From the sequence record NC_101838.1: a DNA stretch of 64,000 nt; one strand, 5' to 3'. The translations under genes and the position numbers were made by a program. This document shows, piece by piece, positions 1-57,609 of this stretch. The notes beneath the pieces are model-generated. The model was not told the DNA's origin. It worked only from the letters and a program-made list of their open reading frames with translations, and searched no databases. This DNA is from a phage. The stretch's first letter is position 1, and each line of letters starts with the position of its first letter.

Positions 1-584
1 CAGAACGTGTATTTCAATCTGTTGCAATTGGTGGTGGTGCTAAAATAAAGAGAAAAGAAACTATCGAGAAGTCAAAGAAAGATAGGGATAAGGTCTATGT
101 ACATCCAAATGAGGATATTGAAGGATTTTATATCGCAAATGGTAGGCAAATGGTCTTTTACTCCAATAGGCTTTTGGAAATTGACGGGAAAATGCAACCT
201 GCGGAACTAATAACTGATGTTTGGACAGACATTAGTTGGAATGGAATAGCAAATGAAGGCGGCGTTAGTTTCAAAAATGGGAAAAAACCAGAAGCGCTTT
301 TGAAGCGGATTTTCGAAATGTGTACGCGAGAAGGTGATTTGGTATTGGATTCATTTGGTGGTTCGGGAACTACTGCTGCTGTAGCTCACAAGATGAAAAG
401 ACGTTGGATCTCAATCGAGCTAGGTGATCATTGTCATACCCATATTATTCCGCGCTTGGAAAAAGTGATCGATGGTGAAGATCAAGGTGGTATTTCTAAG
501 TCTGTAAACTGGCAAGGTGGTGGTGGTTTCCGTTATTACAAACTTACCCCGACCTTAATTGCGAAAGATAAGTCTGATCAATAA
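1..584 (+). CDS. DNA N6-adenine/N4-cytosine methyltransferase (beta-class), C-terminal part; 5' end lies outside window
   Basis: Frame open from window start; SAM-binding motif DSFGGSGTT near C-terminus. Confidence 0.7.
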   Translation, partial: ERVFQSVAIGGGAKIKRKETIEKSKKDRDKVYVHPNEDIEGFYIANGRQMVFYSNRLLEIDGKMQPAELITDVWTDISWNGIANEGGVSFKNGKKPEALLKRIFEMCTREGDLVLDSFGGSGTTAAVAHKMKRRWISIELGDHCHTHIIPRLEKVIDGEDQGGISKSVNWQGGGGFRYYKLTPTLIAKDKSDQ

Positions 585-597
585 AGAGTACAATCAA

Positions 598-903
598 ATG
601 ATGAAACGTTATAAACCATACACTTTTGAAATCGATTTCGAACTTGACGATATGTTCACTGTGGAAGCTCAGGCAGTTGTCCAGTTGCCAGACCCAGAGT
701 GCCGTGATTCTGATGTTGACTATTATGGATTTAGACAGATCACTGATGTACATGTTTACCACAACGGCGAAGAGATTGACTTCCACCAACTGCCAAACGC
801 TGTGCGCCACTCAATTTACAAACGTGCAGCCCGTGAACTAGAGTCCTATCTGGATGCAGCTACAACAGCGGCTGCATTTGCTGAAGAAGTAGGAGGTTTC
901 TGA
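598..903 (+). CDS. hypothetical protein
   Basis: ORF track 559..903; internal ATG chosen; start uncertain. Confidence 0.4.
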   Translation: MMKRYKPYTFEIDFELDDMFTVEAQAVVQLPDPECRDSDVDYYGFRQITDVHVYHNGEEIDFHQLPNAVRHSIYKRAARELESYLDAATTAAAFAEEVGGF

Positions 904-1298
904 TGATTACAGGTGTGAAGGTTATCCAATACCACTTAACCAAATTGGAAGATGCTGAAAAAGAGCTTGCAGAAGTTCTGAACAGCGGGTATACTTTTCT
1001 ATCATGCGCCTGCTCAGACACCTACGTTGTGTGGACACTTATCCGGAAGGAAGAGCCTGCAGGGATCTTGGTGCCAAATCCTAAGATTATTAGTGAGGTG
1101 GATGACTACTCTCAGGACGGCCTGCCAGAAGGTTGGGAAGTATGGGAAGGTGGTGAAAACCCTGCACCAGGTAAGTGGGTAAAATACAAACTACGTAGCG
1201 GTGCACAGTACGCTGACTACTCTGATGACCTAGACTGGAGTCATTCTTCACCAGGATCATCTGCAAGTTCATATGATATCGTAGCTTTTCAGGAATAA
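903..1298 (+). CDS. hypothetical protein
   Basis: ORF with AGGAGG RBS upstream; ATGA overlap with previous stop. Confidence 0.55.
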   Translation: MITGVKVIQYHLTKLEDAEKELAEVLNSGYTFLSCACSDTYVVWTLIRKEEPAGILVPNPKIISEVDDYSQDGLPEGWEVWEGGENPAPGKWVKYKLRSGAQYADYSDDLDWSHSSPGSSASSYDIVAFQE

Positions 1299-1310
1299 GG
1301 AGAAGAAGGT

Positions 1311-1793
1311 ATGTCAGATTTTATGTGGAAAGTAGGTTACGCAACCCCTGAAATGTGTGAGGCTTGCTTTGTTAAAATAGGCCGCGAGGATATCGACAAA
1401 GTGATCCTTAAGTTTCGTGATGTGGCTGTGATCGGCAACCGAGTGCTTAAGCACTTAAAGAATCTGAAGCTCACCAAAAAGAAGTTCTTCGGACTTTTCG
1501 AAGAGAAGGTTGATGCTTGGACTCATTGCATTCAGGAAGCCAAATCCCACTACAGTGCCATCGTTACTCCAGAACGGGTAGCAAAGATGGAAGGATTCAT
1601 CAACAGCACAGAATTTGAGTGCCTAAAGGCTGCCCTTGATAGCTATCCAAAGTGCCTCAAACACCTTGACAAGTATGCAGAAAAGGATGGTGAAATGTAT
1701 CTCACCCTGGACGCATATTATGAGATGCAAGAAATTTTAAATTTAGATTTGACATTGGTATCCACCGAGTATACAATAGGTATCCGGGTTTAA
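1311..1793 (+). CDS. hypothetical protein
   Basis: ORF with AAGGAG RBS; followed by intrinsic terminator. Confidence 0.55.
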   Translation: MSDFMWKVGYATPEMCEACFVKIGREDIDKVILKFRDVAVIGNRVLKHLKNLKLTKKKFFGLFEEKVDAWTHCIQEAKSHYSAIVTPERVAKMEGFINSTEFECLKAALDSYPKCLKHLDKYAEKDGEMYLTLDAYYEMQEILNLDLTLVSTEYTIGIRV

Positions 1794-1801
1794 CACTAGG
1801 C

Positions 1802-1826
1802 CCTGCCCGAAAGGGTGGGGCTTTTT
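1802..1826 (+). terminator. rho-independent terminator
   Basis: Hairpin CCCTGCCC-GAAA-GGGTGGGG followed by TTTTT directly after stop at 1793. Confidence 0.6.
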
Positions 1827-1844
1827 GCATTAGGAGACAGCAAA

Positions 1845-2609
1845 TTGAAATTTATCTACAAAGAACACTACCACAAAGGTGTTGTGTGGAGTCTATTTGA
1901 CGGGTCTGGTGGTGCAGTCATTGACTGGGCAAAAGCTGGGTACCTGTGCCTGTGCTTTAATGCAGAAGGTGCTGATCACGGCAGTTATGCAGAGGTTATA
2001 ACCGATCATCCCAACATTCACTATGTGGATTATTGGATTGACCCATGGTTCCCTCAGGAAACTTTTTGCATGTACCCAGCTCCAGACTTTATTCTTGCAT
2101 TTCCTCCGTGCACGCATTTAGCGGTATCAGGTGCTGCACATTTTAAGAAAAAGCTGGCTAAGGACCCCATGATCCAAATTAATGCTGTAAAGGATGCTCG
2201 GGTTGCGGAAGAGCTGGGAGAGATTTACGATTGCCCGTGGCATGTAGAGAATCCTGTGGGTGTTATGTCCACACTGTGGCGTAAACCTGATTACCGTTTT
2301 CATCCTTCTGACTATGGTGGGTATTTACCGGAGGATGATGTAAACCCTTGGTTTCCTGAATTTATAGCTCCACGTGATGCCTATCCAAAAATAACTTGCG
2401 GCTGGATAGGTAATGGATTTATAATCCCGCCCACAAAACCTGTCCCGCAAATAGTTGACGCGGTTAGCGGGTATTCCATGCAACACGCCAAGCTGGGTGG
2501 GAAGAGTGCAAGAACGAAGATGATCCGAAGCCTCACACCACGTGGCTGGGCAAAAGCTGTATTCTTAGCAAACGAGCCTGTAGTAAGGAGCAGAATTAAT
2601 GGGAAGTAA
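1845..2609 (+). CDS. DNA cytosine-C5 methyltransferase-like protein (short form)
   Basis: Motifs LFDGSGG (motif I-like), FPPC (PC motif), ENPVG (ENV-like); no ATG, probable TTG start after AGGAG RBS. Confidence 0.45.
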   Translation: MKFIYKEHYHKGVVWSLFDGSGGAVIDWAKAGYLCLCFNAEGADHGSYAEVITDHPNIHYVDYWIDPWFPQETFCMYPAPDFILAFPPCTHLAVSGAAHFKKKLAKDPMIQINAVKDARVAEELGEIYDCPWHVENPVGVMSTLWRKPDYRFHPSDYGGYLPEDDVNPWFPEFIAPRDAYPKITCGWIGNGFIIPPTKPVPQIVDAVSGYSMQHAKLGGKSARTKMIRSLTPRGWAKAVFLANEPVVRSRINGK

Positions 2610-4677
2610 ATTTATGGCATCTGCATACAACCGTTTCGGTGAGCCAAACCCGAAAGCAACTAAGTATAAAAGCGGGGGAAGTGTGAAACGAGACTATCGT
2701 GATGAAAAAGAAGTTGAAACTGTAGAGACTGTTTTAGAAAATACTAAAATTGTCCCTGTCCCACAACAAAATATCGGTCTGATGGCTGCACAATATTTTG
2801 GTGTGCGATCAGCATTGTCCCAAGAAGACGGTGTGACAGTCACTGCAACATATTTCCCATATTACGACCGCTACGGAAATCTGTCCGGTTTCAAAAAGCG
2901 CGACTGGACGATTCCTAAAGAGCAAAGGGGCCATTTCTCCGTTGTTGGCATAGTAAAGGCTAACTCTCAGATGTTTGGTCAAAAGCTGTGTGCATCTTCC
3001 AACAACCGTAAGCAGATTAACGTTTGTGAGGGAGAAGGTGATGTTATTGCAGCATGGCAGGCTGCATATCAGATACAAGTAAAAGGGATTCTCACCAACG
3101 CTAAAGCCCCGGCAAAGGTGAAGCAGTGGGCTAAAGAGGTCCAGGACGGGATCGACGCAGTTATCAACGGTGGTGATCTGGCAGGAAAACCCTGCCTGCC
3201 TTTTGTTGGAATTAACTGTGGATGTGCAAACGCAGTAGATACTTTTGCAAACAATGAGAAGTTTATCCGCAGCTATGGAACAGTTGTGCTGGCAATGGAT
3301 AACGATGCAGCTAACGAGGTAGAGAAGCAAAAACACGTCATTAAAGGTGTTGAGGCCACGCACAATATCGCAGCATTTTTGATGGCTGATAACGTTTACC
3401 ACGTAGAATACCCTGGTGAAGTAAATGACCCTGACGGGGTAAAAGATATCCGTGACATGCTGAAGGCTAAAAAGCTGGAAGATATTGTCAACATGTTCCG
3501 GCACCCTGTTAAATATGTGCCTGATGCTGTGTCGGATTTAGAAGACTTCTCTATCGAGTCTTTGCGGAAAAAGACTTCCAACGGGGTAGATATCAGCGCA
3601 GAGTTCCCAAAACTGCAAAAAATGCTAAAAGGCTTGCACAAAGGGACACTCGTAATGCTTACAGGGCCATCAGGGGGCGGTAAAACAACTGTAGCTAAAA
3701 AACTGGAACATTGTATTGCAAGATACCTAATGGACCCGACATGCCCGAAGGCTGATGACTATGAAGAGGATGATCGTCTATGTATGATCCATCTTGAGGA
3801 GGACCCAGAGGAAGCAATTAACTCCTTGTATGCAAACCAGTTAGGGTTTGATGTTAAAGAGTTTGTTGAAGATCCTAGCCAGTTTTTAACTGATCAAGAA
3901 CACGCAGAGATTCACCAATCATGGGCAAAAGCTGGAAAAATCAAAGTGTTCAAACATTTCGGATCTATTCCGGTGGACGAGTTGATTACCAAGCTTAAGC
4001 AAATGGTTTGCCTGTACCATTGCCGTTATATTGTGCTGGATCACCTGTCCATGGTAATTTCAGGGCTTAATGTTAAGGATGAGCGAAAAGAACTGGACAT
4101 GGCTATGACTCAGCTGGCTGCGTTTTGTAAGCAGTTTAACGTGTTTATCTTGGTGATCGCTCACCTCAAACGTACAGAGATTGTGCCTCCTAAGGACAAG
4201 GATGGTAACCCGTTACCTTTCTGGTATCCTGTGCGAAAAGAGAATTTGCGAGGATCGGCGGGGCTTGAACAGTTGAGTTGGGTAGTCATAGGTGTCGAGG
4301 CCGAAGAAATGGTGGATCGTTCTCGTGGACGTGTCCGTCTGGTAGGTCTTAAAAACCGTCCAGCAAAAACTCTAGGTATTGCTGACACTTTGGTTATGGA
4401 CCCGCACACAGGTAAGTTCCATGATGCCAGTAATTGGTACTGGGACAAAGAAATGCAAATGTTTACAGACGGAGAAGGTGGGGAGGTTGTTTGGAGACCT
4501 CAGGCTATGTTTGAGGATCAGGAGCATGCAGTTGTAGAAACACCTATGGGCAAGGTTGTGGCTGATAAGGTTGTAACTCCTACTGTTAAGCCTGTTGACA
4601 CGCAGGAAGACCTCCAGTACGATGATCCATCCTCTGACCCGGTCCCTGGTTTTGAGGATGATGAAACGCCTTTTTAA
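2599..4677 (+). CDS. DNA primase/helicase fusion (toprim primase + DnaB-like helicase)
   Basis: Toprim motifs CEGEGD and MDNDAAN; Walker A GPSGGGKTT; Walker B IVLDHL; acidic C-terminal tail EDDETPF. Confidence 0.85.
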   Translation: MGSKFMASAYNRFGEPNPKATKYKSGGSVKRDYRDEKEVETVETVLENTKIVPVPQQNIGLMAAQYFGVRSALSQEDGVTVTATYFPYYDRYGNLSGFKKRDWTIPKEQRGHFSVVGIVKANSQMFGQKLCASSNNRKQINVCEGEGDVIAAWQAAYQIQVKGILTNAKAPAKVKQWAKEVQDGIDAVINGGDLAGKPCLPFVGINCGCANAVDTFANNEKFIRSYGTVVLAMDNDAANEVEKQKHVIKGVEATHNIAAFLMADNVYHVEYPGEVNDPDGVKDIRDMLKAKKLEDIVNMFRHPVKYVPDAVSDLEDFSIESLRKKTSNGVDISAEFPKLQKMLKGLHKGTLVMLTGPSGGGKTTVAKKLEHCIARYLMDPTCPKADDYEEDDRLCMIHLEEDPEEAINSLYANQLGFDVKEFVEDPSQFLTDQEHAEIHQSWAKAGKIKVFKHFGSIPVDELITKLKQMVCLYHCRYIVLDHLSMVISGLNVKDERKELDMAMTQLAAFCKQFNVFILVIAHLKRTEIVPPKDKDGNPLPFWYPVRKENLRGSAGLEQLSWVVIGVEAEEMVDRSRGRVRLVGLKNRPAKTLGIADTLVMDPHTGKFHDASNWYWDKEMQMFTDGEGGEVVWRPQAMFEDQEHAVVETPMGKVVADKVVTPTVKPVDTQEDLQYDDPSSDPVPGFEDDETPF

Positions 4678-4693
4678 TGTTTAACAAAGAGTG

Positions 4694-4724
4694 GGAGGGG
4701 TAGTACAACCGCCTCCCCTTTAAG
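4694..4724 (+). terminator. hairpin between helicase and polymerase genes (weak terminator/attenuator)
   Basis: GGGAGG...CCTCCC stem followed by short T stretch. Confidence 0.3.
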
Positions 4725-4735
4725 GAGAACTGTAT

Positions 4736-7513
4736 ATGAGTATGTGGTCTTTCGATTTTGAGTCATCCGGTTTGCTGGAAGACCCAGATCTTTATTATCA
4801 CTGCGGTCTGTTTAAAGAGCTGAATAAGAACCGTTTTATGCTGTTCCTTCCTCTAAATGACCGCACACACTACTCCGAGGAGGATATAGAAAAGGCTAAG
4901 AACTTCATTCTGGCAAAGAAAACTCTTTATAAAGATTTTGAAGTTCGCATAGCAGATTTTTCGGAGTTGGAAGGTTGGCTTACAGGCAATTCTGACTGGT
5001 CACCAACAGCTTTGAACTGCCATAACTGCTACAGTTATGACTTTATGCTAATGGAAAGATTATCCGGTATTCATTTTGATATGTTCCGTGATCCTAAATG
5101 CATGGGGACTATCAACGACCACCAGGTTAACCTGTTTGATACGTTGGCGATGAGCAGAATCTTGTGGCCTGATCGCCCTTTACCAAAAGGTTGTCCGGAC
5201 TCTGTATTCAACCCGGTTACTAAGAAAATGCAGCCTGTTGGTCCTCACGGCCTTATGGCATGGGGCTACGCCCTTGGTAACCAGAAAGTTCAAATTGATG
5301 ACTGGCGAGATCTTCCGTTGTGGAAGTATGTGGATCGTGTATTCGAGGACGTTATCATCCAGGAGCTGCTCTGGAAAGAGCTGGTAGCGGAATCAAAAGG
5401 TGTATTCTACGGCAAATCTGACATGCAGAACTTTATGTACGATCCAGCCAAAGAGAAGCCGAAAGGGTTCAAGAAAATCACCTGGAAGAACGCATTACGC
5501 CGAGGCATGCTGCAGCACTTCCTGATGGAGCTGCAGGCCCGTCAGGGTGTGTATTTCGACATAGATGGGGCTATTGCTTTACGTGACCGTTGCGATGCGT
5601 GGATGAAAGAGATCGCTGATCGTGTTGAACCTCAACTTCCTTTAAAAGAGTTGTCAATGTCTCAGCGGCCCAAGTTCCCTGAAAAGCCGTTTAACCAAGA
5701 TGGGACAATCTCCAATAATGGTTGGAAATGGTTAAAAGATAAGCTTGGCTATCCTGTAGACATGAGCGCTTTAGAATTCAAAGCCCCGCCTAAGCGAGCA
5801 TTTACCTCCACAGGAGATGTCAGCAAGATGGGGATAAAATGGTGCGAAGAGATGGGCTGCAAAGACCCCGACAAGATGGCTGATTTCTTGAGAGGTTATA
5901 TTAAGGGCACCTCCACACCACAACCTTTACCTAAAGAGCTGATGGATCAGGCAATAAGTGATCTGCAGCAGAAGCGAATGCCTGACTGCAAGATACCTAT
6001 GAAAATCAGCAATCAGGACGACATTAAGCGATACCTGATCAGTGCTGGTTGGCTTCCGACAATGTGGAGAACTAAGGATGTAACTAAGGACAGCAAGAAG
6101 AAAGCTCTACCTGATGCAGATGTTGATGCACGAGTATATGCATACATGGACGAGCTTTTAGAGTCAGAGTATTGTGACCTAATTATCAACTTCTGGAACA
6201 AAACTGATGCTAAGTTTCAGACAACAGTGCACAAGTTCCGAAGCTTTCCTAACTCCGAAAGGATTAAAAAGGAAGTGTTCGGGAAAATACGCAGAAAAGC
6301 CAGGGCACTTATTACTTCTCCGCAACTGAAAGATACGTTTGGACACCTATGTCCGAATCTTGAAAAATTGAACGGAGAGATGGCTAAAGATATCGTCTTG
6401 TGGTTATCATTGCGAAACCGCAGATCGGTCCTTGATCCAATCAAGGAGGATAAGGTTGATACTGGTCTTCTTAATCACCCACGTTTGAAGATTGACCATA
6501 AGCTTCCTGCTAAAAGCTCTGGATTAACAAACACTTCCCGACAGAAACACAGTATTTGTGCAAACATGCCTAAACCATCTCCTAAAGTGGTTATGGGTAA
6601 AGAGATGCGTAGCTTGTGGGGTGTTCCTCCTGGATATTTTGAGATCGGTATTGACGGGTCCAACTTAGAGCAGCTTATCGGGGCTTGGGGTGCCTTTGAG
6701 TTCGACAACGGCTTGTACTATGATGTTGTAAGTAACGGAGACGCACACCAAAACAATGCTGAGGCATATACAAAAGTAGCAGGCAGAGAGGTGTCTCGTA
6801 ACGACGGTAAACCTATCACGTATGGGGTTATGTACGGGGCACAAAAAGATAAAGTTGCAGATATGCTGGATATCTCCCCAGAGTTGGGGCAAAGGGTGAT
6901 CGATGCACTTTGGGATGCCAACCCCGGTCTTAAGGGGCGCAAAGAGGATCTGGAGAAATTCTGGGAAGCAACAGGTAAGAAGTTTATCTACTCTTTTGAT
7001 GGTCATGCTATCTGGACCCGATCTAAACACTCTTTACTTAATGCATACCAACAAAATGGTGGTGCATCGCTGTGTGACTTAGTTGGGATACTCATGCACC
7101 ACCAAATGGTGAAGCGTGGGTGGTACGATGAAGGTGTCCGTCGTATTATCTATTACCATGACGAATATCAGCTTCAAGTGCCTGACACACCGAAGTATAA
7201 GACTGTGTACACCTTCGACACAATTGAAGAACTGGAAGCATTTAAGGCAGAGCAGGAAGCCAAACTTCATGTGTTCGACGGTCATAAGTACAAAAAGGCA
7301 CGCAAGGATGAGGACGGAAACGAAGTGGTTGACAGAGACGGAAACACGGTGTACGATCCTATCCTGAACGATGACGGAAAGCTTGAACTTATCTGGAGCC
7401 CTGTGGGTGAAATGGTGGTGCATTGCTTCTGGCAAGCTTCTAAAATGATGGGAGTCCCGTTCCAGATCACAGGTGAATACTTGTGTGGTCGTAACTGGGG
7501 TGATTGTCACTAA
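4736..7513 (+). CDS. DNA polymerase, family A (Pol I-like) with 3'-5' exonuclease domain
   Basis: Exo I motif FDFESSG; Pol A motif B KPITYGVMYGAQ; motif C YHDEYQ; AAGGAGA RBS. Confidence 0.9.
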   Translation: MSMWSFDFESSGLLEDPDLYYHCGLFKELNKNRFMLFLPLNDRTHYSEEDIEKAKNFILAKKTLYKDFEVRIADFSELEGWLTGNSDWSPTALNCHNCYSYDFMLMERLSGIHFDMFRDPKCMGTINDHQVNLFDTLAMSRILWPDRPLPKGCPDSVFNPVTKKMQPVGPHGLMAWGYALGNQKVQIDDWRDLPLWKYVDRVFEDVIIQELLWKELVAESKGVFYGKSDMQNFMYDPAKEKPKGFKKITWKNALRRGMLQHFLMELQARQGVYFDIDGAIALRDRCDAWMKEIADRVEPQLPLKELSMSQRPKFPEKPFNQDGTISNNGWKWLKDKLGYPVDMSALEFKAPPKRAFTSTGDVSKMGIKWCEEMGCKDPDKMADFLRGYIKGTSTPQPLPKELMDQAISDLQQKRMPDCKIPMKISNQDDIKRYLISAGWLPTMWRTKDVTKDSKKKALPDADVDARVYAYMDELLESEYCDLIINFWNKTDAKFQTTVHKFRSFPNSERIKKEVFGKIRRKARALITSPQLKDTFGHLCPNLEKLNGEMAKDIVLWLSLRNRRSVLDPIKEDKVDTGLLNHPRLKIDHKLPAKSSGLTNTSRQKHSICANMPKPSPKVVMGKEMRSLWGVPPGYFEIGIDGSNLEQLIGAWGAFEFDNGLYYDVVSNGDAHQNNAEAYTKVAGREVSRNDGKPITYGVMYGAQKDKVADMLDISPELGQRVIDALWDANPGLKGRKEDLEKFWEATGKKFIYSFDGHAIWTRSKHSLLNAYQQNGGASLCDLVGILMHHQMVKRGWYDEGVRRIIYYHDEYQLQVPDTPKYKTVYTFDTIEELEAFKAEQEAKLHVFDGHKYKKARKDEDGNEVVDRDGNTVYDPILNDDGKLELIWSPVGEMVVHCFWQASKMMGVPFQITGEYLCGRNWGDCH

Positions 7514-7562
7514 TGTAAACTATCAGCACAGGGAGGTGCTGTTGAGCAAAGAGGAGACTTTT

Positions 7563-7847
7563 ATGGTAGTAGAGCCAACAAAAACATTTACATCCATGAC
7601 CATTCCTGTTATTATGCAGGTGGAGTGTGTTCAGGTATCTCAAGTGTGGCCTGGCACCAAAATCCCAACAGGGCCTGATTTCTTTCAGGTTGGGAAAGTG
7701 TACAATGTCTGGAAGGCACCAGATTGTTACCCTTTCATTAAAGATGACCGTGGGATGCTGTGGTATCTTGGAAATGACTTGACACTGCACCTTGGGAATG
7801 CTATTATTGCAGTATTCAGACTTAACAAGAAGGAGACCGATCAATGA
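7563..7847 (+). CDS. hypothetical protein
   Basis: Internal ATG with GAGGAG RBS chosen over track start 7473. Confidence 0.45.
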   Translation: MVVEPTKTFTSMTIPVIMQVECVQVSQVWPGTKIPTGPDFFQVGKVYNVWKAPDCYPFIKDDRGMLWYLGNDLTLHLGNAIIAVFRLNKKETDQ

Positions 7848-8071
7848 CGACTTTGGTTAAAGCTACCTTTGTAGAAGAAAAGATGACAGACCTGTCATTC
7901 TTTAAAGAAGGAAAGACCTACGAGGTTTATTACGATAAAGCTCGTGCAAACAAAATGATTAAAGACGAGGAAGGGGTTGCCTGGTATATCTCTCACCTGG
8001 CAAACGGTGAGTATCATATCTACGGAACCACTTTGCTTGCCAAGTTTGTAGTTGTTGAAGAGGACCTATGA
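7844..8071 (+). CDS. hypothetical protein
   Basis: ORF, ATGA overlap with upstream gene. Confidence 0.45.
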   Translation: MTTLVKATFVEEKMTDLSFFKEGKTYEVYYDKARANKMIKDEEGVAWYISHLANGEYHIYGTTLLAKFVVVEEDL

Positions 8072-38963: not shown

Positions 38964-38994
38964 TGGTCCTCCCCTTTGTAGGTTAAATTGTATA

Positions 38995-39758: not shown

Positions 39759-39795
39759 GCTACCTCCTACCTACCGTCCCTGGTAAGATAAATTA

Positions 39796-40463: not shown

Positions 40464-40465
40464 TA

Positions 40466-40750
40466 CTACCAGGTCACTGTCAAGTAGGCAACTGTGTTAT
40501 TTTTCTCCGGAGAGATGCCAACAACATCCACCTGCAGACCTCCTGCCCTCAAATCCCCAACAATGTGTGGGAAGTAGTCTGAGAGGTGTGATGGGAGATT
40601 TATCGAAAATCCACATCCCAGAAAGCCTGCTAACGCTTTATTTTGTATCTCCCCAACAATCGCATCATAAATAGAGTTAAGCTCGTCAGGAAGCGTTACA
40701 GGACGTTTTAGCGCTAACTGGTGTAATTTGTCCTTAGCACTCATTTTCAT
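40466..40750 (-). CDS. hypothetical protein
   Basis: Internal ATG giving ATGA overlap with upstream stop. Confidence 0.4.
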   Translation of the reverse strand: MKMSAKDKLHQLALKRPVTLPDELNSIYDAIVGEIQNKALAGFLGCGFSINLPSHLSDYFPHIVGDLRAGGLQVDVVGISPEKNNTVAYLTVTW

Positions 40751-41280
40751 TTCAGGTCTACCTCTGGTGGTGCCAACCACATAAATGGCGGCAAGTCTAG
40801 ACGGTTTTTCTTGTCCCATACAAAATATGCATATGCCTGCCCATCCGTTCTACCATTAGATTGGAATGACGGACGCTTAGATATTGTGATCACAGTGGTA
40901 GGTGCATTATCAAGCCACCATTCAAATCTGGCCTTGCTTTCCAGAAAATTAAGACGCAAAAGCATAATAACTACGTCGGCATCTTTCAACGCCTTGTCCA
41001 CAAACTCACGAGCCAGGCTGTACGGCGGGTTGGTGATAATACAGTCAACATGGTTGTATTCTGTATTCAGATAGTCAACACCTTCTTGGATTTCTCCCCA
41101 TGCAGATCCTAACGGCATACGGGAGTAGAACACACCTGAGGCACTATTCCTGCAAGGCTCTAAGTAGGTCCAGTCTTCTGGGAACGGAATAAGGTCATAC
41201 AGCCCTTCTGCACACCACTCCGGTGTCACATACTCATCGTAGGCGTTACGTTGTTCATCAGGTTTTCTAGCACAAGTCAT
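40747..41280 (-). CDS. dam: DNA N6-adenine methyltransferase (phage Dam-like)
   Basis: Catalytic motif IITNPPY. Confidence 0.7.
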   Translation of the reverse strand: MTCARKPDEQRNAYDEYVTPEWCAEGLYDLIPFPEDWTYLEPCRNSASGVFYSRMPLGSAWGEIQEGVDYLNTEYNHVDCIITNPPYSLAREFVDKALKDADVVIMLLRLNFLESKARFEWWLDNAPTTVITISKRPSFQSNGRTDGQAYAYFVWDKKNRLDLPPFMWLAPPEVDLK

Positions 41281-41331
41281 GCAAATCTCCAGATCATAAA
41301 AGCCCTCCGAAGAGGGCTTTAGAATTAATGT

Positions 41332-42381
41332 TTAAGCTTCTTCGACAATTCCTGCACCCAGGATTTTTTCATTGAGCTCTTTTGCTGTTTTAATAATATT
41401 GTCCACCAGACGCTTGCGAGTCTTATCTTTCACCTTAACCTCTTCACCTCCGTTCAGAGTAGTCTTCAATTGAGACAGAATATCCTGAAGTTCAACGACA
41501 GAGAATCTCTGCAGATCTTCTGAAGTAATCTCACTCAGGGCAATTCTGACGGTCTCGCCACTTTCCATCTGCAGATTCAGGAACACAGTGTGAACATCAC
41601 CTTTCGAACCACCCGCTTTTGCAGATTCAACAGCATGAACTAACTCATCTAAAGATGTGCACTGGTGAATCTCCGGAAGACCTGCTTCACCTAACACGCC
41701 TTCTTCATCACCTTTTGCCAGAAGCTTTTTCGGTTTTTGTCCGTTCTGGATGCGTTGTATGTTGCCTTCATCCAGAATAATAGCTCCAGTGCGTGCTGCC
41801 AGCTCTTCTCCGTCCAACCACACTTCGCCACCAGCTGTGATGGATGCGATCTCATCTTCTGTCAGCACCCCACCGTAGTATTTTTCGATCAGGCGTTCAA
41901 AACGTTTTTTCCAGTAGCTGACCTGAGTATTCATGTTCACACCGTTACCATAAGTGCCACCTTGATAGTAGTGGAACATAAACTCTGTGTCCGGAGCCAC
42001 AGTACGTTCTTTACAACCAAGCCATAAGATTGTTCCAGCAGAGCAGCACATCCCTTCAGCATGTGCAACAACGCTTGCCTGAGACTCTCGGAATGCCTGC
42101 AGATAAGCCATTGCAATGTGCACGCAACCCCCAGGGCTATTGATGATCACCCGAATGCTCTCTTCCGGCTGAGCCATACGGATCGTCTGCAGACGAGACA
42201 TATGATCTTGTAAGTCTTCCAAATCGTCGATATAAAGAACGTGGTCAACAACAGGTGTTGGGTAGCTGTATGTTTCCATGATACCGCCCGGCATACCAAA
42301 CATTTTATTACTCATAGGTTCGAAACCGTTCTGTTTTTCTTTCATGCCGTGTACCATGGTTCTGCGAGGTGTTAAATTCAT
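41332..42381 (-). CDS. ClpP-family (S14) serine protease-like protein with C-terminal extension
   Basis: INSPGGCVHIAMAYLQAF resembles ClpP signature; candidate Ser in GMCCSAG. Confidence 0.65.
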   Translation of the reverse strand: MNLTPRRTMVHGMKEKQNGFEPMSNKMFGMPGGIMETYSYPTPVVDHVLYIDDLEDLQDHMSRLQTIRMAQPEESIRVIINSPGGCVHIAMAYLQAFRESQASVVAHAEGMCCSAGTILWLGCKERTVAPDTEFMFHYYQGGTYGNGVNMNTQVSYWKKRFERLIEKYYGGVLTEDEIASITAGGEVWLDGEELAARTGAIILDEGNIQRIQNGQKPKKLLAKGDEEGVLGEAGLPEIHQCTSLDELVHAVESAKAGGSKGDVHTVFLNLQMESGETVRIALSEITSEDLQRFSVVELQDILSQLKTTLNGGEEVKVKDKTRKRLVDNIIKTAKELNEKILGAGIVEEA

Positions 42382-45231: not shown

Positions 45232-46164
45232 TCATTTACCACAAATCTTCTTGTATACCTCTTCTACCGTGTCAAACACTTCAGGCCTGTAGTAGAAAAA
45301 CTCAGTGCTACCGTCAAATTTTACAGGAAAGTTTATTTTATACTTGCTCAAGGCCTTATGCACAGATTTTTCTAAATCTACCATGTTTTGAGTTGATCCG
45401 CTCCATGTTTTTACTACGTGAAGAGTGTGGACACCTGCGCCAGATTTACGAGCACTGTTAAGCACCTCATTTTTCCTCCTGTGCATTTTAACGCATACAC
45501 CGATTTTCATAAGTGTTGGCACTTCTAAGTCATCAACCATAATGTAGAGTTTACCGTACTCATGAGATAAGAATCCATTTTGTGCGCATTTACAGCAGCC
45601 ACGACCACTTTTTAGGTTATTAGGTTTAGCAGACCACTTATACCCACAAATTTTGCACCTACATTGCACTTTTGTGTTATCATTGGCAATTTTCTCTAAT
45701 ATTTCTATGTCTGGGTTGGCTTTGTGGATAATTGCAGCGTGCTCCTTATGGGTTAACGCTTGACTTTGCCCACGTCTTAAGTCATAGCACTCTGGGCAGC
45801 CGTTTCTTTGGTATAAGTGGTTTTCAGGGTATTGTTCAAACACACCGTGTTCAGGGCAAACAATTTTTACAGGCGTTCTCATGTTCGCATATTTGACTAA
45901 TGAGTAATCGTACTTGTCCCCATGAACAGCCATAGCCTCTTTTATGAACTCTTCAGTGTTCTTTTTCGCTGACCCACCACACCTTGGACAACCATGATTC
46001 TTGAAAGCATGTGCCACAGGGGTTTGCCAGAACTCACCGTGCTCAGGACAAATTATACACACAGGTGTCTTGTTGTTTTTATACTCCACTTTGAAGTAAT
46101 CATATTTGTCACCATGTATAGTCTGAGCTTTTTCTATAAACTCTTCGGTTGTTAGTCTTCTCAT
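45232..46164 (-). CDS. free-standing homing-endonuclease-like protein (duplicated zinc-binding module plus T5orf172-like domain)
   Basis: Two repeats of HGDKYDY...CPEHG...GCP(R/E)C; C-terminal KIGVC...GSTEFF resembles T5orf172-type domain; own promoter. Confidence 0.55.
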   Translation of the reverse strand: MRRLTTEEFIEKAQTIHGDKYDYFKVEYKNNKTPVCIICPEHGEFWQTPVAHAFKNHGCPRCGGSAKKNTEEFIKEAMAVHGDKYDYSLVKYANMRTPVKIVCPEHGVFEQYPENHLYQRNGCPECYDLRRGQSQALTHKEHAAIIHKANPDIEILEKIANDNTKVQCRCKICGYKWSAKPNNLKSGRGCCKCAQNGFLSHEYGKLYIMVDDLEVPTLMKIGVCVKMHRRKNEVLNSARKSGAGVHTLHVVKTWSGSTQNMVDLEKSVHKALSKYKINFPVKFDGSTEFFYYRPEVFDTVEEVYKKICGK

Positions 46165-46236
46165 TACCAGACCAGACCCTTCCGCTATTCACTTTATATT
46201 GCATACTATAGAAAAGAGGAATAGAAGTCAATAAAA

Positions 46237-46275
46237 ACAAAAAAAAAAATGAGAGCATCCTTGCTCTCCACCTCT
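46237..46275 (-). terminator. rho-independent terminator after nrdD (minus strand)
   Basis: GAGAGCAAGGATGCTCTC hairpin followed on minus strand by a long T-run. Confidence 0.6.
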
Positions 46276-46279
46276 TTCC

Positions 46280-47557
46280 TTATTTACTCAACGGACAACA
46301 GTCTACATTCCCAACATGTTTAACACGTTCGATAACCTCTGCTTGTTTACCTGTGTTATACGGCCTACTGTTCGGGCTGGAGAGATAGCCAGACACTCTT
46401 CGGATCACTGAGATATATTGTTCATCGTGGCATCCGCACGCAGGGCAGCAGAACCCTTTAGCTGTTGCACTGAACTCACCAGAGAAACCACACTTGAGAC
46501 ATTTATCCACAGGTTGGTTAATACCAAAATACATAATGTGTTTATACCCGAAGTCAACAAGAGCCTCTAAAGCATCAAGGTTGTTTTTCAGGTTAGGTGT
46601 CTCTACGTATCCGATGTTGCCACCGGAGGAGATCATAGCAAAACCTTCCTCATACTCCCACTTATCAAAAGGAGAGCTATTGATCCATACTGGCTGATGG
46701 AAACTGTTGGTGAGATATTCATGCTCGTGCTTTAACACTTCTGGATATTCACGATCCAGACAGGTTGCAGCTTTATAGCATAGACTCTCAGAAGGAGTGC
46801 CGTACAAGCTAAATGCTAGTCTACTTTCCTTCTTGTATCGCTCACAAGCATCTCTCATGTGCTGAAGGATTCCAAGAGCTAAAGCCTTGTCACCTTCTCT
46901 GCCCAAAATCTGACAGGTTTCATACACACCAATGTACCCAATGCTGATGGAAGCGTACCCGTCATAGAAGAGTTTATCAATACTTTCTTCAGGATCCAGG
47001 CGAGCAAGAGCGCCTTCACACCACATGATGGGGTTCTGCCCTGCCTTTGTTCCTTTTAGACGGTTAACCCTTACAAGGTGAGCCTCGTATGCAAGATCCA
47101 AGTATTCGTCAAGAACTGCAAAGAAATCAACACCTTCCGTCTTAGCTTTTGCCGCAATCATTGGCAGGTTAAGGCTAACAACGCCTAAGTTAAATCTGCC
47201 AAGGTATTTCTCCTCGCCTGTTTCCAAGTCATTGTATTTGCTAAGAAAACTCCGGCAACCCATGCTCGTTACTTTGCCATCTGTCGAGCCTGTCACTTTT
47301 CTATTTAGTGGTACAGATACGAAGTCAGGATAGATACGTTCTGCACAGCATTCCAGAGCTAATCGTTTCAAATCATAGTTAGGATCTCCAGGGTTCATGT
47401 TGACACCCTCTTCTAGGAAGAACAGCACTTTAGGGAACACAGGTGTGATCCGTTCTTCACCAAGACCCATTTTGTGGACTTTCAAGTAATTTTTGGTAAT
47501 CATTCTACCAAAGACCGAGGTATCCAGTCCTAAACTTAATGTGATGAATGGAGTCTG
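46280..47557 (-). CDS. nrdD: anaerobic ribonucleoside-triphosphate reductase NrdD, exon 2
   Basis: Begins QTPFITLS, continuing exon 1; CCPACGCH zinc site; glycyl-radical motif RRVSGY near C-terminus. Confidence 0.8.
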   Translation of the reverse strand, partial: QTPFITLSLGLDTSVFGRMITKNYLKVHKMGLGEERITPVFPKVLFFLEEGVNMNPGDPNYDLKRLALECCAERIYPDFVSVPLNRKVTGSTDGKVTSMGCRSFLSKYNDLETGEEKYLGRFNLGVVSLNLPMIAAKAKTEGVDFFAVLDEYLDLAYEAHLVRVNRLKGTKAGQNPIMWCEGALARLDPEESIDKLFYDGYASISIGYIGVYETCQILGREGDKALALGILQHMRDACERYKKESRLAFSLYGTPSESLCYKAATCLDREYPEVLKHEHEYLTNSFHQPVWINSSPFDKWEYEEGFAMISSGGNIGYVETPNLKNNLDALEALVDFGYKHIMYFGINQPVDKCLKCGFSGEFSATAKGFCCPACGCHDEQYISVIRRVSGYLSSPNSRPYNTGKQAEVIERVKHVGNVDCCPLSK

Positions 47558-48354
47558 CTGTCTCCTCCCTGTGTTTCCACAGGGCCAGACTATCTCTTAC
47601 TCTACTTCAATAAGATAATAACCCTTTATTGTGAGATGCTTACCTTCGGCATTTCCTTCGATAGCCCTATGAACGTTACCTACGTTCAAATTTAAGGCTT
47701 TTGCACAGGCATAGAGTGAAGGATATTCACCCACCAAGGTTTTCCCTTTGTATGCCTGCACTTTCCTATAGCACTTACCTGGACAAAGTCCTGTTCGGAA
47801 AGCATGTCTCTTATTATCTTCCGGCAAAACCCACTCTAGGTTAGACGGATGATCATTCAATGTATTGCCATCTTTATGATTCACTTCCCAGTTTTCAGGG
47901 TCTTCTGGGACATCCGGCAAACAATACAAGGCAACAATCCTTGAGGTTTGGATTCGAATCTTTTTACCTTTGTGGTTGAAAGAGTACATATAACGGCGTT
48001 TAACATGCTTGTTACCTTTTCCATAACCTCCCCACAATATTGGGTGTAGCATTCCACGTTTCCCGTATACGTTTCCAACCTCATCAATCACATAGTTTGA
48101 TTCTTCACCATTAAGAATGATCTTTTTCATAGAGCCTCTCCATTTCGAAGTTAGTATTTCAACTAACCCCTACACTACTTGGTTCAGAAATGTTTGTCAA
48201 GCATCTCTGCCTTTCGTTAGTCGTTACAACCGTTCCAACTCCTGTAAGAACTAGTCACGGGATTGGCATAGCTTTCGCCTTAGCGTTCCCCGTTAGCCGG
48301 ATTTACCGACCCCTCTTATGAGGTTAGGAGAGTTTTACAACGGCCAGTTTGTTA
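47558..48354 (-). mobile_element. group I intron interrupting nrdD
   Basis: In-frame stop right after exon 1; conserved NrdD sequence resumes at 47557; core-like elements ACGGGGAAC and CAATCCCGTG; exon 1 ends in U, intron ends in G. Confidence 0.7.
47597..48130 (-). CDS. HNH homing endonuclease (intron-encoded)
   Basis: EVNHKDGNTLNDHPSNLEWV HNH motif; GGAGAGG RBS inside intron. Confidence 0.8.
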   Translation of the reverse strand: MKKIILNGEESNYVIDEVGNVYGKRGMLHPILWGGYGKGNKHVKRRYMYSFNHKGKKIRIQTSRIVALYCLPDVPEDPENWEVNHKDGNTLNDHPSNLEWVLPEDNKRHAFRTGLCPGKCYRKVQAYKGKTLVGEYPSLYACAKALNLNVGNVHRAIEGNAEGKHLTIKGYYLIEVE

Positions 48355-49215
48355 ACCGTTGACAGAAGTTAACGTATTGATTTGATAGAGCAAAGTCTGC
48401 ATGCTGTCAAATACGTCTTTATCTGTCATTTGCATTGCAACAGTCTCAGCATCTGGCAACCAATGTTCCTGGCAAAATTTAAGGTTCTTCTCATAGGTCG
48501 CTTCAGCATACTGTGCCAGATAATGATCAATATGGCTCATAGTCTGACCCCCATATTGAGCACTAGCTACTGCACTAGAGATTTGGCTAAGGATTGTTGT
48601 TGCAACCCCTATTGACTTAGGCTTACTGACATGGGCGTTACCAATGTTGAATCCGTTTTCCAACATATCTGGATAATTTACCAAACAACAGTTTGTTAAC
48701 GGACTGATCAAGTAGTCAAGATCATGCACATGGATGAAGCCTCTATTGTGCTCTTCTGAGACACGGTCTGGCAGGATCTGTGTTGATGCAAGGTGTTTGC
48801 TAAGAATGCCTGCAAGCAGGTCACGATGAGTGTGTACATGATTGGTAGGCTTATTTGCGTTTTCTTTTGTAAATTCATCACAAGTGCGATCCAAGAAGCC
48901 ACTAATATCTGCAAGCAGTTTTCCACCTGCCTCTCTGTTATTATCTCTTGTCTGCCTATACTGGATGTATTCTCTGGCTGCACATTTTAAACCCATATCC
49001 ATAAGAGCGTCTTCAACAAGGATATGGATATTTTTTACAGAGATCGTGCACTGGTCGGTTGGTAGATTGTTAGCAACAACTTCATTAACCGCGCAGGCGA
49101 TCCGGTAAGCTTCTTCTTCAGTATGTCCAGACTCAAGTAAGGCGGACTCTGCCGCCTTGATCACCTTAATTCCGTTATAGACCTCTTCTCTACCGTCCCG
49201 TTTTACAACTTTCAC
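48355..49215 (-). CDS. nrdD: anaerobic ribonucleoside-triphosphate reductase NrdD, exon 1
   Basis: ATP-cone start MKVVKRDGREE; NrdD blocks GFIHVHDLDY, TNCCLV, MLENGFNIGNA, PKSIGVAT, QYGG. Confidence 0.85.
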
Positions 49216-49490: not shown

Positions 49491-49493
49491 GTA

Positions 49494-50582: not shown

Positions 50583-50621
50583 TATTCTAACCTCTAAAAT
50601 GGGGCCGAAGCCCCTTTAAAA

Positions 50622-53164: not shown

Positions 53165-53174
53165 CTTCACCACC

Positions 53175-53675: not shown

Positions 53676-53734
53676 TATTATAGATTATCTAATACTATTA
53701 GTCAACACAAAAGTTACCTATCGCTGTGATAGGA

Positions 53735-54718
53735 TTAACCTTTCACGAAGTGGTTATTAAGCAGTTGTCTGTGCTGAACCCACCCACAAAAGTTGGCAGA
53801 CCAGAATTTACCATCACGGTCTTGATGGGTTACACCTTCCTGCCAAGTACTGATGTCTTGTGTGATTTCACATGAAGACAGGTAGTAGTTTAAACGTTCC
53901 ATTGCGTTATCGTGATCCATAGGTGTTGCCTGGTGCTCGTAAGGGCTTGCATGAATACGATCCCCACCAATCAATTTTTTAGCCACACTATCTGCCTTTT
54001 CAAACGTGCTGTCAATATTTCGATAAGATACTTGTGCACAGCAACTAGCACTGATAGACAGAGCTTCTTTAGTATCGAGAATGCAGAGCTTTCCTTCTGT
54101 GTCACGTACAGCGTAGTTAAACTCTCCGTCCAAATAAACGTGCTCTACATATGGGGTGTGCCATTGACCCGGTTTAAGGATTTCAGGAGTGCTATTCTCA
54201 AGAGCCTCCCACATACAATTAGCTAACATCTGAATCGTAGGATCCGCATCGTGCCAGCAACGGAGGTGGAAAAAATTATTCCACTCGGTGCTTGTTACAA
54301 CTGTTTTCATGCGCTGGAACGGCTCCACTAAGCGGTTACATACTTGCTTATGGTAACCAGCAAGGGCGAACTTCTCTGCATGCCAAGCGGCGTTTTTTGC
54401 AGCTTCTTTCCAAAACTCTTCAGGAGTTAGCTCCATGTCAGTGTACTCTACACGGATCTTTTGATCGTGTTCCCCACCATCTTCCATTCCTCGCTTATTT
54501 ACACCGAAGCGAACTGGCATTGCCGGATTCTCCACAATCTGTTGCAGCATCTTGCCGACAGGTACTGCACGGGAAGACATGGCGTTTCGGCTGAACACTC
54601 GGTGCGTCATAAGCTCTGAGTGAATAATTCGAGGATACTCTAGTTCAAAAGTGGTGATACGCTTACCTTTCTCGGAAATGCTGTCAGCAATAATCTTTGC
54701 AGTGCACAGTTTTAGCAT
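53735..54718 (-). CDS. thyX: flavin-dependent thymidylate synthase (ThyX-like)
   Basis: THRVFSRNAMSS fits ThyX signature (R)HRx7S. Confidence 0.65.
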   Translation of the reverse strand: MLKLCTAKIIADSISEKGKRITTFELEYPRIIHSELMTHRVFSRNAMSSRAVPVGKMLQQIVENPAMPVRFGVNKRGMEDGGEHDQKIRVEYTDMELTPEEFWKEAAKNAAWHAEKFALAGYHKQVCNRLVEPFQRMKTVVTSTEWNNFFHLRCWHDADPTIQMLANCMWEALENSTPEILKPGQWHTPYVEHVYLDGEFNYAVRDTEGKLCILDTKEALSISASCCAQVSYRNIDSTFEKADSVAKKLIGGDRIHASPYEHQATPMDHDNAMERLNYYLSSCEITQDISTWQEGVTHQDRDGKFWSANFCGWVQHRQLLNNHFVKG

Positions 54719-54918: not shown

Positions 54919-54919
54919 T

Positions 54920-55513: not shown

Positions 55514-56121
55514 TCTTCTTGGGCCTCTTTAGCATCAATATACTTGCACACAATCTCCGATGCACACTCCCAAGGTGCACCTTCAGGGTTTACAACATCA
55601 AACTCAACCCCTTTTATTCCGTTCTTTTCCAGACTTAGATAGGTTCTGGAATCATTTCCCCAGTCATATCCTACACGGTGAATACGGAACAACAACAGAT
55701 CTCCACCTGTGCTGTATGCGTACTCGCTAAGGCATGCCAGTTCCTCTTTGAATCCACCATCGGAGTAAACAATAACCCCTTTACTTTCAGGAAAATCTTT
55801 CTTCAAAGATGCGACTGCGGCTTTACCGAAAGCATCTTCACCAAAGATAGGTTTAATCAGATTTTCACTACAATGGATCATCCATTCTCGCGGAGAAACA
55901 TGCTTGCCGTCTATCATTAAGAAAGGGCAAGGCTCTTCTTTGTAGTGGCGGTCATAAAGTGCATTCCAGAGTTGAGGAGTTACACCAGCTGCCTTAATTG
56001 CCACGCTGAAGAGCATTTCCTTAACCTCGCGGTGGTGTGAGTTAGGAATAGCTTCCAACAAGAGATCTGCAATGTGATCCTTACCACTGCTGGGCGGGGC
56101 GTTAAGAACAATAATATCCAT
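55507..56121 (-). CDS. P-loop nucleotide kinase, probable deoxynucleoside monophosphate kinase
   Basis: N-terminal P-loop NAPPSSGKD. Confidence 0.55.
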   Translation of the reverse strand: MDIIVLNAPPSSGKDHIADLLLEAIPNSHHREVKEMLFSVAIKAAGVTPQLWNALYDRHYKEEPCPFLMIDGKHVSPREWMIHCSENLIKPIFGEDAFGKAAVASLKKDFPESKGVIVYSDGGFKEELACLSEYAYSTGGDLLLFRIHRVGYDWGNDSRTYLSLEKNGIKGVEFDVVNPEGAPWECASEIVCKYIDAKEAQEEC

Positions 56122-56324
56122 TAAAAACCTCCGTGGTATTCTTCAACTGCATCAATAATACTTTTACACTTATCTACCAGCTCGTTAGCCACTACAGCAT
56201 CGTCTTCCCAAACAGCCTCCTCAATCTGATCAAGCAATGATCGCATCTTACTCATCATTTCTGGGATAAAGTTTTCTGAAAAGCTGTCTGGAATTGTTAA
56301 CTCTAGTGTCATTTCGGTCTCCAA
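56121..56324 (-). CDS. hypothetical acidic protein
   Basis: ORF. Confidence 0.45.
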   Translation of the reverse strand: METEMTLELTIPDSFSENFIPEMMSKMRSLLDQIEEAVWEDDAVVANELVDKCKSIIDAVEEYHGGF

Positions 56325-56339
56325 TCATACTATACGTTA

Positions 56340-56798
56340 TTAGAAGTTTGTTTTTACACGTCCCTTTTCATCAACCTCGTTGTTAGCTAAAAGCGTTACA
56401 AAGTCTGTGAAACGAACATGAAGAACCCTTTTCTTATCAAGGTATCCTAAAGCCACCCCTGAGAAATTTAGCATCAAAGGGGCTAAAGAAGCTCTGGCAC
56501 TGAAATGCTGTTGTTCTACCCTTCCAACACCCTTAGTGTAGGATGGGTTAAGATTGTAAGTTCTGAATCCCAGTTTTGTTGGAGCTTTAGAATTAAAAAC
56601 GACTTTATAGCGTTTCTTACTCAACTTATGTTCCAGGATAAGCATTCCCTTATCACCTTTGATAAGTTGAAAATCTGTAAAGTGCTCTTTTAAGACGAAA
56701 GGTAGTGCCAGTCCCATCGCCTGTCCTCTTTGTACCGCTGTCTCACCAAAAGCTTTTGCATCAGTAAGTTCTTTGGTCAAGTCTATGCTTTTGATCAT
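56340..56798 (-). CDS. hypothetical protein
   Basis: ORF. Confidence 0.5.
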   Translation of the reverse strand: MIKSIDLTKELTDAKAFGETAVQRGQAMGLALPFVLKEHFTDFQLIKGDKGMLILEHKLSKKRYKVVFNSKAPTKLGFRTYNLNPSYTKGVGRVEQQHFSARASLAPLMLNFSGVALGYLDKKRVLHVRFTDFVTLLANNEVDEKGRVKTNF

Positions 56799-57609
56799 AC
56801 CTGGTCTCCAAAATGTATTGTAGTTCTTTCTTACCTATACTCTTCATTCCAGCAGTCTTACCTGCTTCTTCTTGAAAAGAAGAATAGCATTCAGCAAACA
56901 CTCTGTCAACACCGTCAACTAAAGATTTTATGAAATATGTAGATTCTTCAGATTTTGGGTCATCCTCCCCCAATACTTTTCCAGCATTATACCCAACACG
57001 TCTTACACAGAAGTCGTAGTCATCTGGTGTGCTAAAAGAAAATAACTTATTCTCTCCAATCTCTACAGGATCCCTATTGCACGCCTTTTTCTCCCAAATT
57101 TGGAAAACACATGGCACGTCATAAGGTTTGCCATTAAGTAAAAACGAGTTCTTAGGGCACCTTTCGCTGTAGACAAGGTGCATCGACATGTCCAATTTGT
57201 TTGCAAAAAATATTTTTTCAAATGTCCGTGGCAAGATGAAGGCTATAGCCCCTCCAAGCTCTAGCAATGATGCACAATGGTTAAAGAATTTGCAAGCTAA
57301 GGATGAATTCTTGCCAAATGGTGGGTTACCTATGAAGACATCTGCCTTGGGATGCACCTCTAAGAAGTTTGCCTGAATGCACGGTGTTGGTCCTTCAAAT
57401 TCAGGATCTGGTACTAAATCGTACGACAGTATCTCTGAAAATAGTTTTGAAAAAGAACCCCTTCCAGCAGAAGGCTCAACGTATGCACAATTCCCATACC
57501 TATCTTTTACTTTACCAACAAGATATTCTGCATACTCAGGGTTTGTGTAATATTTGTCGTTGGACTCTTTCTTGCTCAAAGTGCCTCCAAAAGGAAAAGG
57601 GAGGCGCAA
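56761..57609 (-). CDS. DNA adenine methyltransferase
   Basis: SAM motif EPSAGRGSF; catalytic motif GNPPFG. Confidence 0.65.
   Translation of the reverse strand: MRLPFPFGGTLSKKESNDKYYTNPEYAEYLVGKVKDRYGNCAYVEPSAGRGSFSKLFSEILSYDLVPDPEFEGPTPCIQANFLEVHPKADVFIGNPPFGKNSSLACKFFNHCASLLELGGAIAFILPRTFEKIFFANKLDMSMHLVYSERCPKNSFLLNGKPYDVPCVFQIWEKKACNRDPVEIGENKLFSFSTPDDYDFCVRRVGYNAGKVLGEDDPKSEESTYFIKSLVDGVDRVFAECYSSFQEEAGKTAGMKSIGKKELQYILETRYDQKHRLDQRTY

Follow-up and report, generated by a model that had tools for sequence, protein, structure and literature searches.

The 64,000-nucleotide stretch of phage DNA analysed here (NC_101838.1; referred to as the window at its full length) carries three complete genes for DNA methyltransferases (MTases) and the end of a fourth. 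The products are a Type III Mod-like enzyme, of which the 3' end of the gene is present (1..584, plus strand), a compact Dcm-like C5-cytosine MTase of 254 amino acids (aa; 1845..2609, plus strand), a mini Dam-like N6-adenine MTase of 177 aa (40747..41280, minus strand) and a gamma-class, M.TaqI-like N6-adenine MTase of 272 aa (56761..57579, minus strand). All four had been proposed, with these strands and motifs, in a first-pass annotation of the bare sequence, and the PHROG families support each of them with E-values of 1e-29, 4.3e-87, 2.9e-66 and 4.9e-129 in the above order; owing to these strong E-values the motif matches in the four open reading frames (ORFs) are not due to chance. A PHROG scan of 20 other ORFs of at least 140 aa in the window revealed no further MTase. 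It is thus highly probable that the window encodes three complete orphan DNA MTases and the end of a fourth, of the Mod-like, Dcm-type, mini-Dam and TaqI-like kind, all without a recognisable restriction partner.

The window belongs to a Vequintavirus, i.e. an rV5-like myovirus of Escherichia coli. Its first 8 kb matched 124 phage records in a megablast search, and the closest ones are PMBT16 (98.9%) and DrSchubert/Bas50 (98.3%). The gene order agrees with the records of Bas50 and PMBT16: helicase, methyltransferase, primase/helicase, DNA polymerase and many small ORFs are followed by a block on the minus strand that comprises ClpP, PhoH, ribonucleotide reductases, ThyX, exonucleases and a ligase. 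Scans of the window for tRNAs and Rfam families were both empty. All four MTase genes are already known, as they are annotated in near-identical public genomes including the BASEL phage records. The Bas50 annotation names three of them 'putative N6 adenine methyltransferase' and the fourth one 'Dcm-like C5 cytosine methyltransferase'.

The compact C5-cytosine methyltransferase

The 254-aa protein (phrog_757 family) displays the central motifs of C5-cytosine MTases in a strongly conserved form. In an alignment of 51 sequences, P87-P88-C89 of motif IV and E135-N136-P137 of motif VI are invariant, the C-terminal IRSLTPRG helix is mostly invariant, and the residues G20, S21 and G22 of motif I (FDGSGG, aa 18-23; F18-x-G20-x-G22) are conserved in at least 90%; K182 is conserved as well. 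The same high conservation (at least 90%) applies to T90, which makes PCT the rule in the family and no oddity of the window gene. The predicted structure, a confident model, exhibits a class I fold dependent on S-adenosylmethionine (AdoMet) with the topology of C5-MTases, and its target-recognition domain (TRD) is minimal, almost absent. Profile and hhalign comparisons place motifs I-IV in register with M.HaeIII and M.HhaI, with C89 matching C81 of HhaI (the M.HhaI sequence used is identical to PDB 10mh). The product of 1845..2609 is hence, as judged from its sequence, classified as a compact Dcm-type C5-cytosine MTase from a family with one demonstrated member that forms 5-methylcytosine (5mC). 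According to the mechanism of the family, Cys89 would attack C6 of the cytosine, and C5 would receive the methyl group from AdoMet. The first-pass annotation had called this short ORF C5-MTase-like on account of FDGSGG, PPC and ENP, with PCT in place of PCQ, and both motifs and fold bear this out. Its suggestion of a non-canonical enzyme is correct in that the protein departs from the textbook form, but it does not represent anything new, because PCT prevails among the more than 3,500 proteins of the family, of which one with 54% identity makes 5mC.

The family comprises 3,567 homologues in a set of 5.8 billion proteins (1,027 representatives at 50% identity), and those listed are mostly about 210-260 aa long. 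Seven of the 51 homologues match PF00145 at E <=0.01; the three of these that were examined all exceed the gathering score and cover profile positions 4-94 only, corresponding to motifs I-IV. M.HaeIII is the sole match of the family profile among PDB sequences (E 0.87), and NCBIfam contains no family for this protein or for the 272-aa protein. In comparison with the canonical M.HhaI, M.HaeIII and E. coli Dcm (PF00145), the window enzyme is about 70-220 residues shorter, lacks a separate TRD lobe and the canonical QxRxR motif VIII, and reads PCT and ENP in the places of PCQ and ENV. Neither the QxRxR string nor the GNxV string of motif X occurs in the 254-aa protein, and K182 and R146 may serve as substitutes for the motif VIII/X residues. 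The almost absent TRD is shared with the catalytic domains of DNMT3A and DNMT3B, from which the window enzyme differs by an identity of merely 12-16% and by the lack of regulatory domains and of a DNMT3L-type partner. Split C5 enzymes with a separate subunit are represented by M.AquI and M.EcoHK31I. A separate specificity subunit was considered for the compact enzyme and rejected, since the loci of the homologues share no conserved neighbour gene. The homologue in Salmonella phage SSE121 is flanked by small ORFs other than those found in lambdoid phages, and the 160-aa ORF upstream of the window gene does not resemble those that precede the lambdoid homologues. HHpred had also led to the annotation of a homologue from the related Certrevirus phage CB7 as a cytosine methylase (PMC7344957).

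The demonstrated member of the family is the enzyme of K42, a KarlJaspers-like phage of the Drexlerviridae, in which escape mutants of retron Ec86 are located in a 711-bp gene for a 'Dcm-like C5 cytosine methyltransferase' (bioRxiv 10.1101/2023.08.16.553469). K42 Dcm acts as the retron's trigger, and its expression in E. coli MG1655 resulted in more 5mC on the multicopy single-stranded DNA (msDNA) as determined by LC-MS, a gain that was lost in the C82A/E128A/K175A/K176A mutant; the authors superposed their model on DNMT3A and noted a DNMT3A-like fold (bioRxiv 10.1101/2023.08.16.553469). The window protein and the Dcm of Bas06 (KarlJaspers) are 54% identical over their full length (E 1e-87; 254 and 236 aa, respectively), and the layout FDGSG / FPPCT / ENP / IRSLTPRG is common to the window, Bas06 and K42 enzymes. 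Three of the four residues mutated in K42 Dcm, namely, C82, E128 and K175, have C89, E135 and K182 as their counterparts in the window enzyme. In contrast, K176 is replaced by I183; Ile or Leu occupies this position across the Vequintavirus clade, and at least 90% of the family has Lys there. Further differences are ten extra N-terminal residues of the window protein, a different family of host phages and a different gene neighbourhood.

We place the start of the gene at the TTG codon at 1845, which is located behind an AGGAG sequence. The alternative GTG at 1815, which would extend the product to 264 aa, sits within a terminator-like, GC-rich hairpin with a T run (1798..1823, plus strand; 11-pair stem with 7 G-C pairs) between ORF 1311..1793 and the C5-MTase gene. 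The first-pass extents of 1..584, 1845..2609 and 40747..41280 can accordingly be retained, but the 264-aa version and the start of the fourth ORF at 57609 are to be abandoned, as both starts lie within hairpins. A near-consensus sigma-70 promoter-like site (1749..1777, plus strand; TTGACA, 17-nt spacer, TACAAT; 11 of 12 matches) is found at the end of ORF 1311..1793, directly upstream of the hairpin and the start of the C5-MTase gene. A promoter directly before a hairpin is an odd layout, and the hairpin may be a structure of the 5' untranslated region and not a terminator.

The lambdoid nin region (contigs L005/L006, genes 4476..6783) harbors a fixed run of PF05869 Dam, DUF6378, an ORF of about 166 aa, compact Dcm, NinG, RusA and the Q antiterminator. 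Dam-type and compact Dcm-type MTases travel together in unrelated phage groups.

The mini-Dam and GATC methylation

The 177-aa protein (phrog_799) contains motif X as YVTPEW, motif I as LEPCRNSASGVF and motif IV as NPPY at positions 84-87. Like the compact C5 enzyme, it has hardly any recognition domain. It differs by zero to one amino acid from the proteins of Bas50, Bas55, Bas59 and PMBT16. D69, D79 and T83, the residues engineered in the N6 adenine methyltransferase of Bas51 (PMC12548924), are found at the same positions, and no difference from that enzyme is detectable at the residues the study names. From the Bas50, Bas55 and Bas59 proteins and this residue numbering, we infer that the window enzyme is essentially identical to the one of Bas51.

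All Bas51 escapers of the retrons Asa1 and Squ1 described in the study are mutated in the 'N6 adenine methyltransferase', and the engineered exchanges D69G, D79G and T83P each feature there as abolishing retron triggering (PMC12548924). According to the nanopore source data, which count sites above a threshold of 60%, N6-methyladenine (m6A) is present in wild-type Bas51 at 1405 GATC, 509 GTAC and 576 other sites, and in the T83P mutant at 35 GATC, 511 GTAC and 349 other sites (PMC12548924). The loss of m6A at GATC in the mutant shows that the 177-aa enzyme methylates GATC on phage DNA, thereby providing the GATC specificity that we assign to the window protein via its Bas51 counterpart. The self-methylation postulated in the first-pass annotation is thus real in a near-identical phage, whose virion DNA is methylated at GATC and GTAC, and the methylation-aware long-read sequencing that it had recommended has in effect been done for m6A with the published Bas51 data. 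Its label 'Dam-like' is appropriate with respect to function, but the sequence match to the Pfam family is weak. The score against Dam (PF05869) is 19.3 bits (E 9.9e-4) and stays under the cut-off of 28.1 bits, and the score against EcoRI_methylase is 20.2 bits with a cut-off of 26.4. The mini-Dam works like Dam, yet it is not a member of Pfam Dam by score.

If the Bas51 host is a standard dam+ E. coli strain, as we assume, host Dam adds little methylation to packaged vequintavirus DNA. The mini-Dam gene is followed 1.2 kb downstream, on its own strand, by a second 177-aa ORF (38995..39528, minus strand), which is annotated as 'putative glycosidase' in the BASEL records and has no Pfam match. 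The gene with this annotation is the second one in which Bas51 phages that escape retron Asa1 are reported to carry a mutation (R87*; PMC12548924).

The Mod-like methyltransferase

The coding sequence at 1..584 (plus strand, frame 3) is open at the window start and ends with a stop codon at 582-584. It encodes the C-terminal 193 aa of a 441-aa protein, including the AdoMet-binding motif I (FGGSG), and 192 of the 193 residues are identical to residues 249-441 of the Bas50 protein bas50_0071. The fragment matches PF01555 with 72.4 bits (E 6.7e-20; cut-off 26.7) and belongs to the PHROG family phrog_67, and the full-length 441-aa relative reaches 145.3 bits (E 3.4e-42) against PF01555 and also matches the Type III Mod subunit 6k0w (E 1.3e-28) and EcoP15I Mod (E 2.4e-24). 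The catalytic DPPF is located upstream of the window; in the full-length relative it is aligned with Mod at E 1e-28. The profile score above threshold, the position of motif IV before motif I and the homology to Mod place the enzyme in the beta class. Classification by profile hidden Markov models (HMMs), which the first-pass annotation had recommended, was successful for this fragment with PF01555, but the 254-aa and 177-aa proteins fail to reach the thresholds of PF00145 and Pfam Dam, respectively.

With the Type III Mod subunits EcoP15I Mod and 6k0w the 441-aa protein shares the beta-class PF01555 domain and homology across the N-terminal and catalytic regions, but it is about 180-200 residues shorter and has no Res gene annotated nearby. 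Since no gene for a Res subunit is annotated around the Mod-like gene in Bas50 or PMBT16, we regard the enzyme as an orphan. On the basis of these comparisons, the predicted function of the 441-aa protein is that of an orphan Type III Mod-like, beta-class N6-adenine (or N4-cytosine) DNA MTase.

The TaqI-like methyltransferase and GTAC methylation

The gene at 56761..57579 starts at the TTG codon at 57579 behind a GGAGG sequence, in agreement with the annotation of its relatives. The TTG at 57609, which would give an ORF of 282 aa, falls within a terminator-like hairpin upstream of the gene (57598..57617, minus strand; 8-pair stem with 6 G-C pairs and a T-rich tail). The product carries motif X (YYT.P), motif I (EPSAGRGSF) and motif IV (GNPPFG), followed by a C-terminal domain of about 100 aa. 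None of the strings YYT.P, EPSAGxGSF and GNPPFG varies among 53 sequences, and the order X - I - IV with the subsequent C-terminal domain is that of the gamma class. This motif order and a model that aligns over 228-241 residues, the C-terminal DNA-recognition domain included, connect the protein with M.TaqI, M.BseCI and CamA; in contrast, it is 100-270 residues shorter than these enzymes, shares only 15-18% identity with them and has NPPF for NPPY. One bacterial homologue adjoins a Type I HsdM/HsdS pair. No restriction enzyme was found beside the bacterial homologues, where the neighbouring ORFs (171 and 199 aa) did not match any family.

The unchanged m6A at GTAC in the T83P mutant of Bas51 requires a second active phage enzyme. 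We know of no GTAC methyltransferase in E. coli K-12. The window contains 136 GTAC sites per 64 kb. By extrapolation, a genome of about 136 kb would contain about 580 GTAC adenines, and given this expectation the 509 methylated GTAC sites of Bas51 represent near-complete methylation. Short palindromes are the typical targets of TaqI-like enzymes, and Mod enzymes typically recognise asymmetric sites of 5-6 bp. These typical site types make the 272-aa enzyme the preferred candidate for GTAC; the Mod-like enzyme may be the source of a part of the 'other' m6A sites in Bas51. An asymmetric 5-bp site is expected about 265 times in 136 kb.

Neighbouring genes and related records

The nrdD gene of the window, for the anaerobic ribonucleotide reductase, is split (45232..49215, minus strand). 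Its N-terminal part (48352..49215, 287 aa) and its C-terminal part (46280..47503, 407 aa) are separated by an ORF for an HNH endonuclease (47597..48130), and a second endonuclease ORF (45232..46164) follows downstream. PMBT16 and Bas50 have a single uninterrupted nrdD, and the split looks like the insertion of a homing endonuclease or intron specific to the window isolate. The 'thymidylate synthase' (53735..54718, minus strand, 327 aa) is the flavin-dependent ThyX (PF02511, E 1.7e-9) and not ThyA; nothing suggests a hydroxymethylase or pyrimidine hypermodification. Furthermore, 16-18 unannotated records in the range MG065635-MG065690, which are named 'Campylobacter phage' (host Campylobacter jejuni), are 97-98% identical to the window at 1..8000 and 38900..41400. 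They are probably mislabelled or derived from contaminated or mixed lysates.

Alternative interpretations

Several points weigh against our interpretation of the four genes. We infer the assignment of the GTAC methylation from enzyme type, and the 272-aa enzyme is a tentative choice with slightly less than an even chance, next to the 441-aa Mod-like protein with a chance that is a little smaller still. The compact C5 protein does not match PF00145 at E <=0.1 and is thus below the gathering threshold, and the hhalign comparison with M.HhaI aligned motifs I-IV, but not motifs VIII-X. Its 5mC evidence is that of the K42 homologue, and the methylation calls given in the Bas51 study are for 6mA only (PMC12548924). 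The CCWGG specificity of K42 Dcm was in turn assumed from the host Dcm and is supported by msDNA mutagenesis only (bioRxiv 10.1101/2023.08.16.553469). Finally, the loss of the second lysine in the Vequintavirus clade suggests that the C5 enzyme may differ from K42 Dcm in activity or specificity.

Two of the four proteins invite a different reading of their chemistry. The 272-aa NPPF protein could be an RNA N6-adenosine MTase of the METTL5/PH1948/Ta1320 type that acts on host rRNA or other host or phage RNA, in which case the GTAC activity on DNA would stem from the 441-aa Mod-like enzyme. Its catalytic core is indeed structurally closest to the RNA m6A enzymes METTL5 and PH1948, but the matches to RNA enzymes span only this core of about 150 aa, and among the listed matches to the two-domain model it is only the DNA m6A enzymes M.BseCI, MmeI, CamA and M.TaqI that align over 228-251 of the 272 residues, with the C-terminal domain included. 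The YYT.P form of motif X is characteristic of DNA enzymes of the gamma class. Together with the bacterial homologue next to a Type I restriction-modification locus and the presence of a GTAC DNA activity without an assigned gene in the vequintavirus group, this makes an RNA target improbable, and we prefer the interpretation as a DNA MTase. The compact C5-like enzyme might likewise be devoid of methyl transfer, either by using carboxy-S-adenosylmethionine (Cx-SAM) for the formation of 5-carboxymethylcytosine, as CmoX does, or because its catalytic activity has been lost in the Vequintavirus clade. The criteria used to choose the published CmoX homologues were an SPPC motif and an arginine in motif X that binds the carboxylate of Cx-SAM, and most of their contigs have a phage cmoA (PMC12783734). 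The window motif is FPPC and not SPPC; the motif X position, at which Asn or Arg distinguishes users of SAM from those of Cx-SAM, lies outside the aligned motifs I-IV. The annotation lists no cmoA-like gene, and 20 larger unassigned ORFs scanned against PHROGs yielded no further methyltransferase-like protein. A dead enzyme conflicts with the affiliation of the gene to a cluster of 332 member sequences at an identity of at least 90%, which argues against decay, and the formation of 5mC by the 54%-identical K42 Dcm in E. coli MG1655 speaks against both variants. We therefore regard them as very improbable and retain the C5-cytosine MTase.

The role of the methyltransferases in vequintaviruses

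Orphan MTases of phages are a classical anti-restriction device, and the first-pass annotation had accordingly explained the four genes by extensive self-methylation that evades host restriction-modification in general. That GATC and GTAC are almost completely m6A-methylated in Bas51 virions is in line with such a broad protection, as is the conservation of the four orphan MTases in more than 100 vequintavirus genomes. However, the BASEL study described the Vequintavirinae as 'exceptionally susceptible' to the tested Type I, II and III systems and as 'lacking any effective protection', and because of this exceptional sensitivity to restriction-modification a broad anti-restriction function is not supported. 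GATC and GTAC moreover cover few restriction specificities, and the mild depletion of GTAC in the window (observed/expected 0.71) and the absence of many GC-rich 6-mer palindromes suggest that site avoidance still matters. The published phenotypes of the Bas51 mini-Dam and of K42 Dcm consist in the triggering of retrons (Asa1/Squ1 and Ec86, respectively). A general anti-restriction role is therefore unlikely.

Site statistics were also considered as a guide to the specificities of the MTases and proved to be uninformative, with GATC not depleted (observed/expected 1.10), GTAC at the above value and CCAGG and CCTGG near expectation.

We favour the interpretation that the enzymes would act on replicating phage DNA and bring about site-specific methylation. 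This modification would guard solely against restriction enzymes with the same sites (GATC-, GTAC- and possibly CCWGG-type) without being a general shield, and it would expose the phage to methylation-sensing defences, e.g. retrons. Our analysis adds little that is new: nanopore sequencing and mutagenesis have already defined the activity of the GATC enzyme, and the formation of 5mC has been demonstrated for a close homologue of the compact enzyme. At present, the MTases are better evidenced as liabilities, i.e. as triggers of retrons, than as protection, and this liability is relevant for the choice or engineering of rV5-like phages for therapy.

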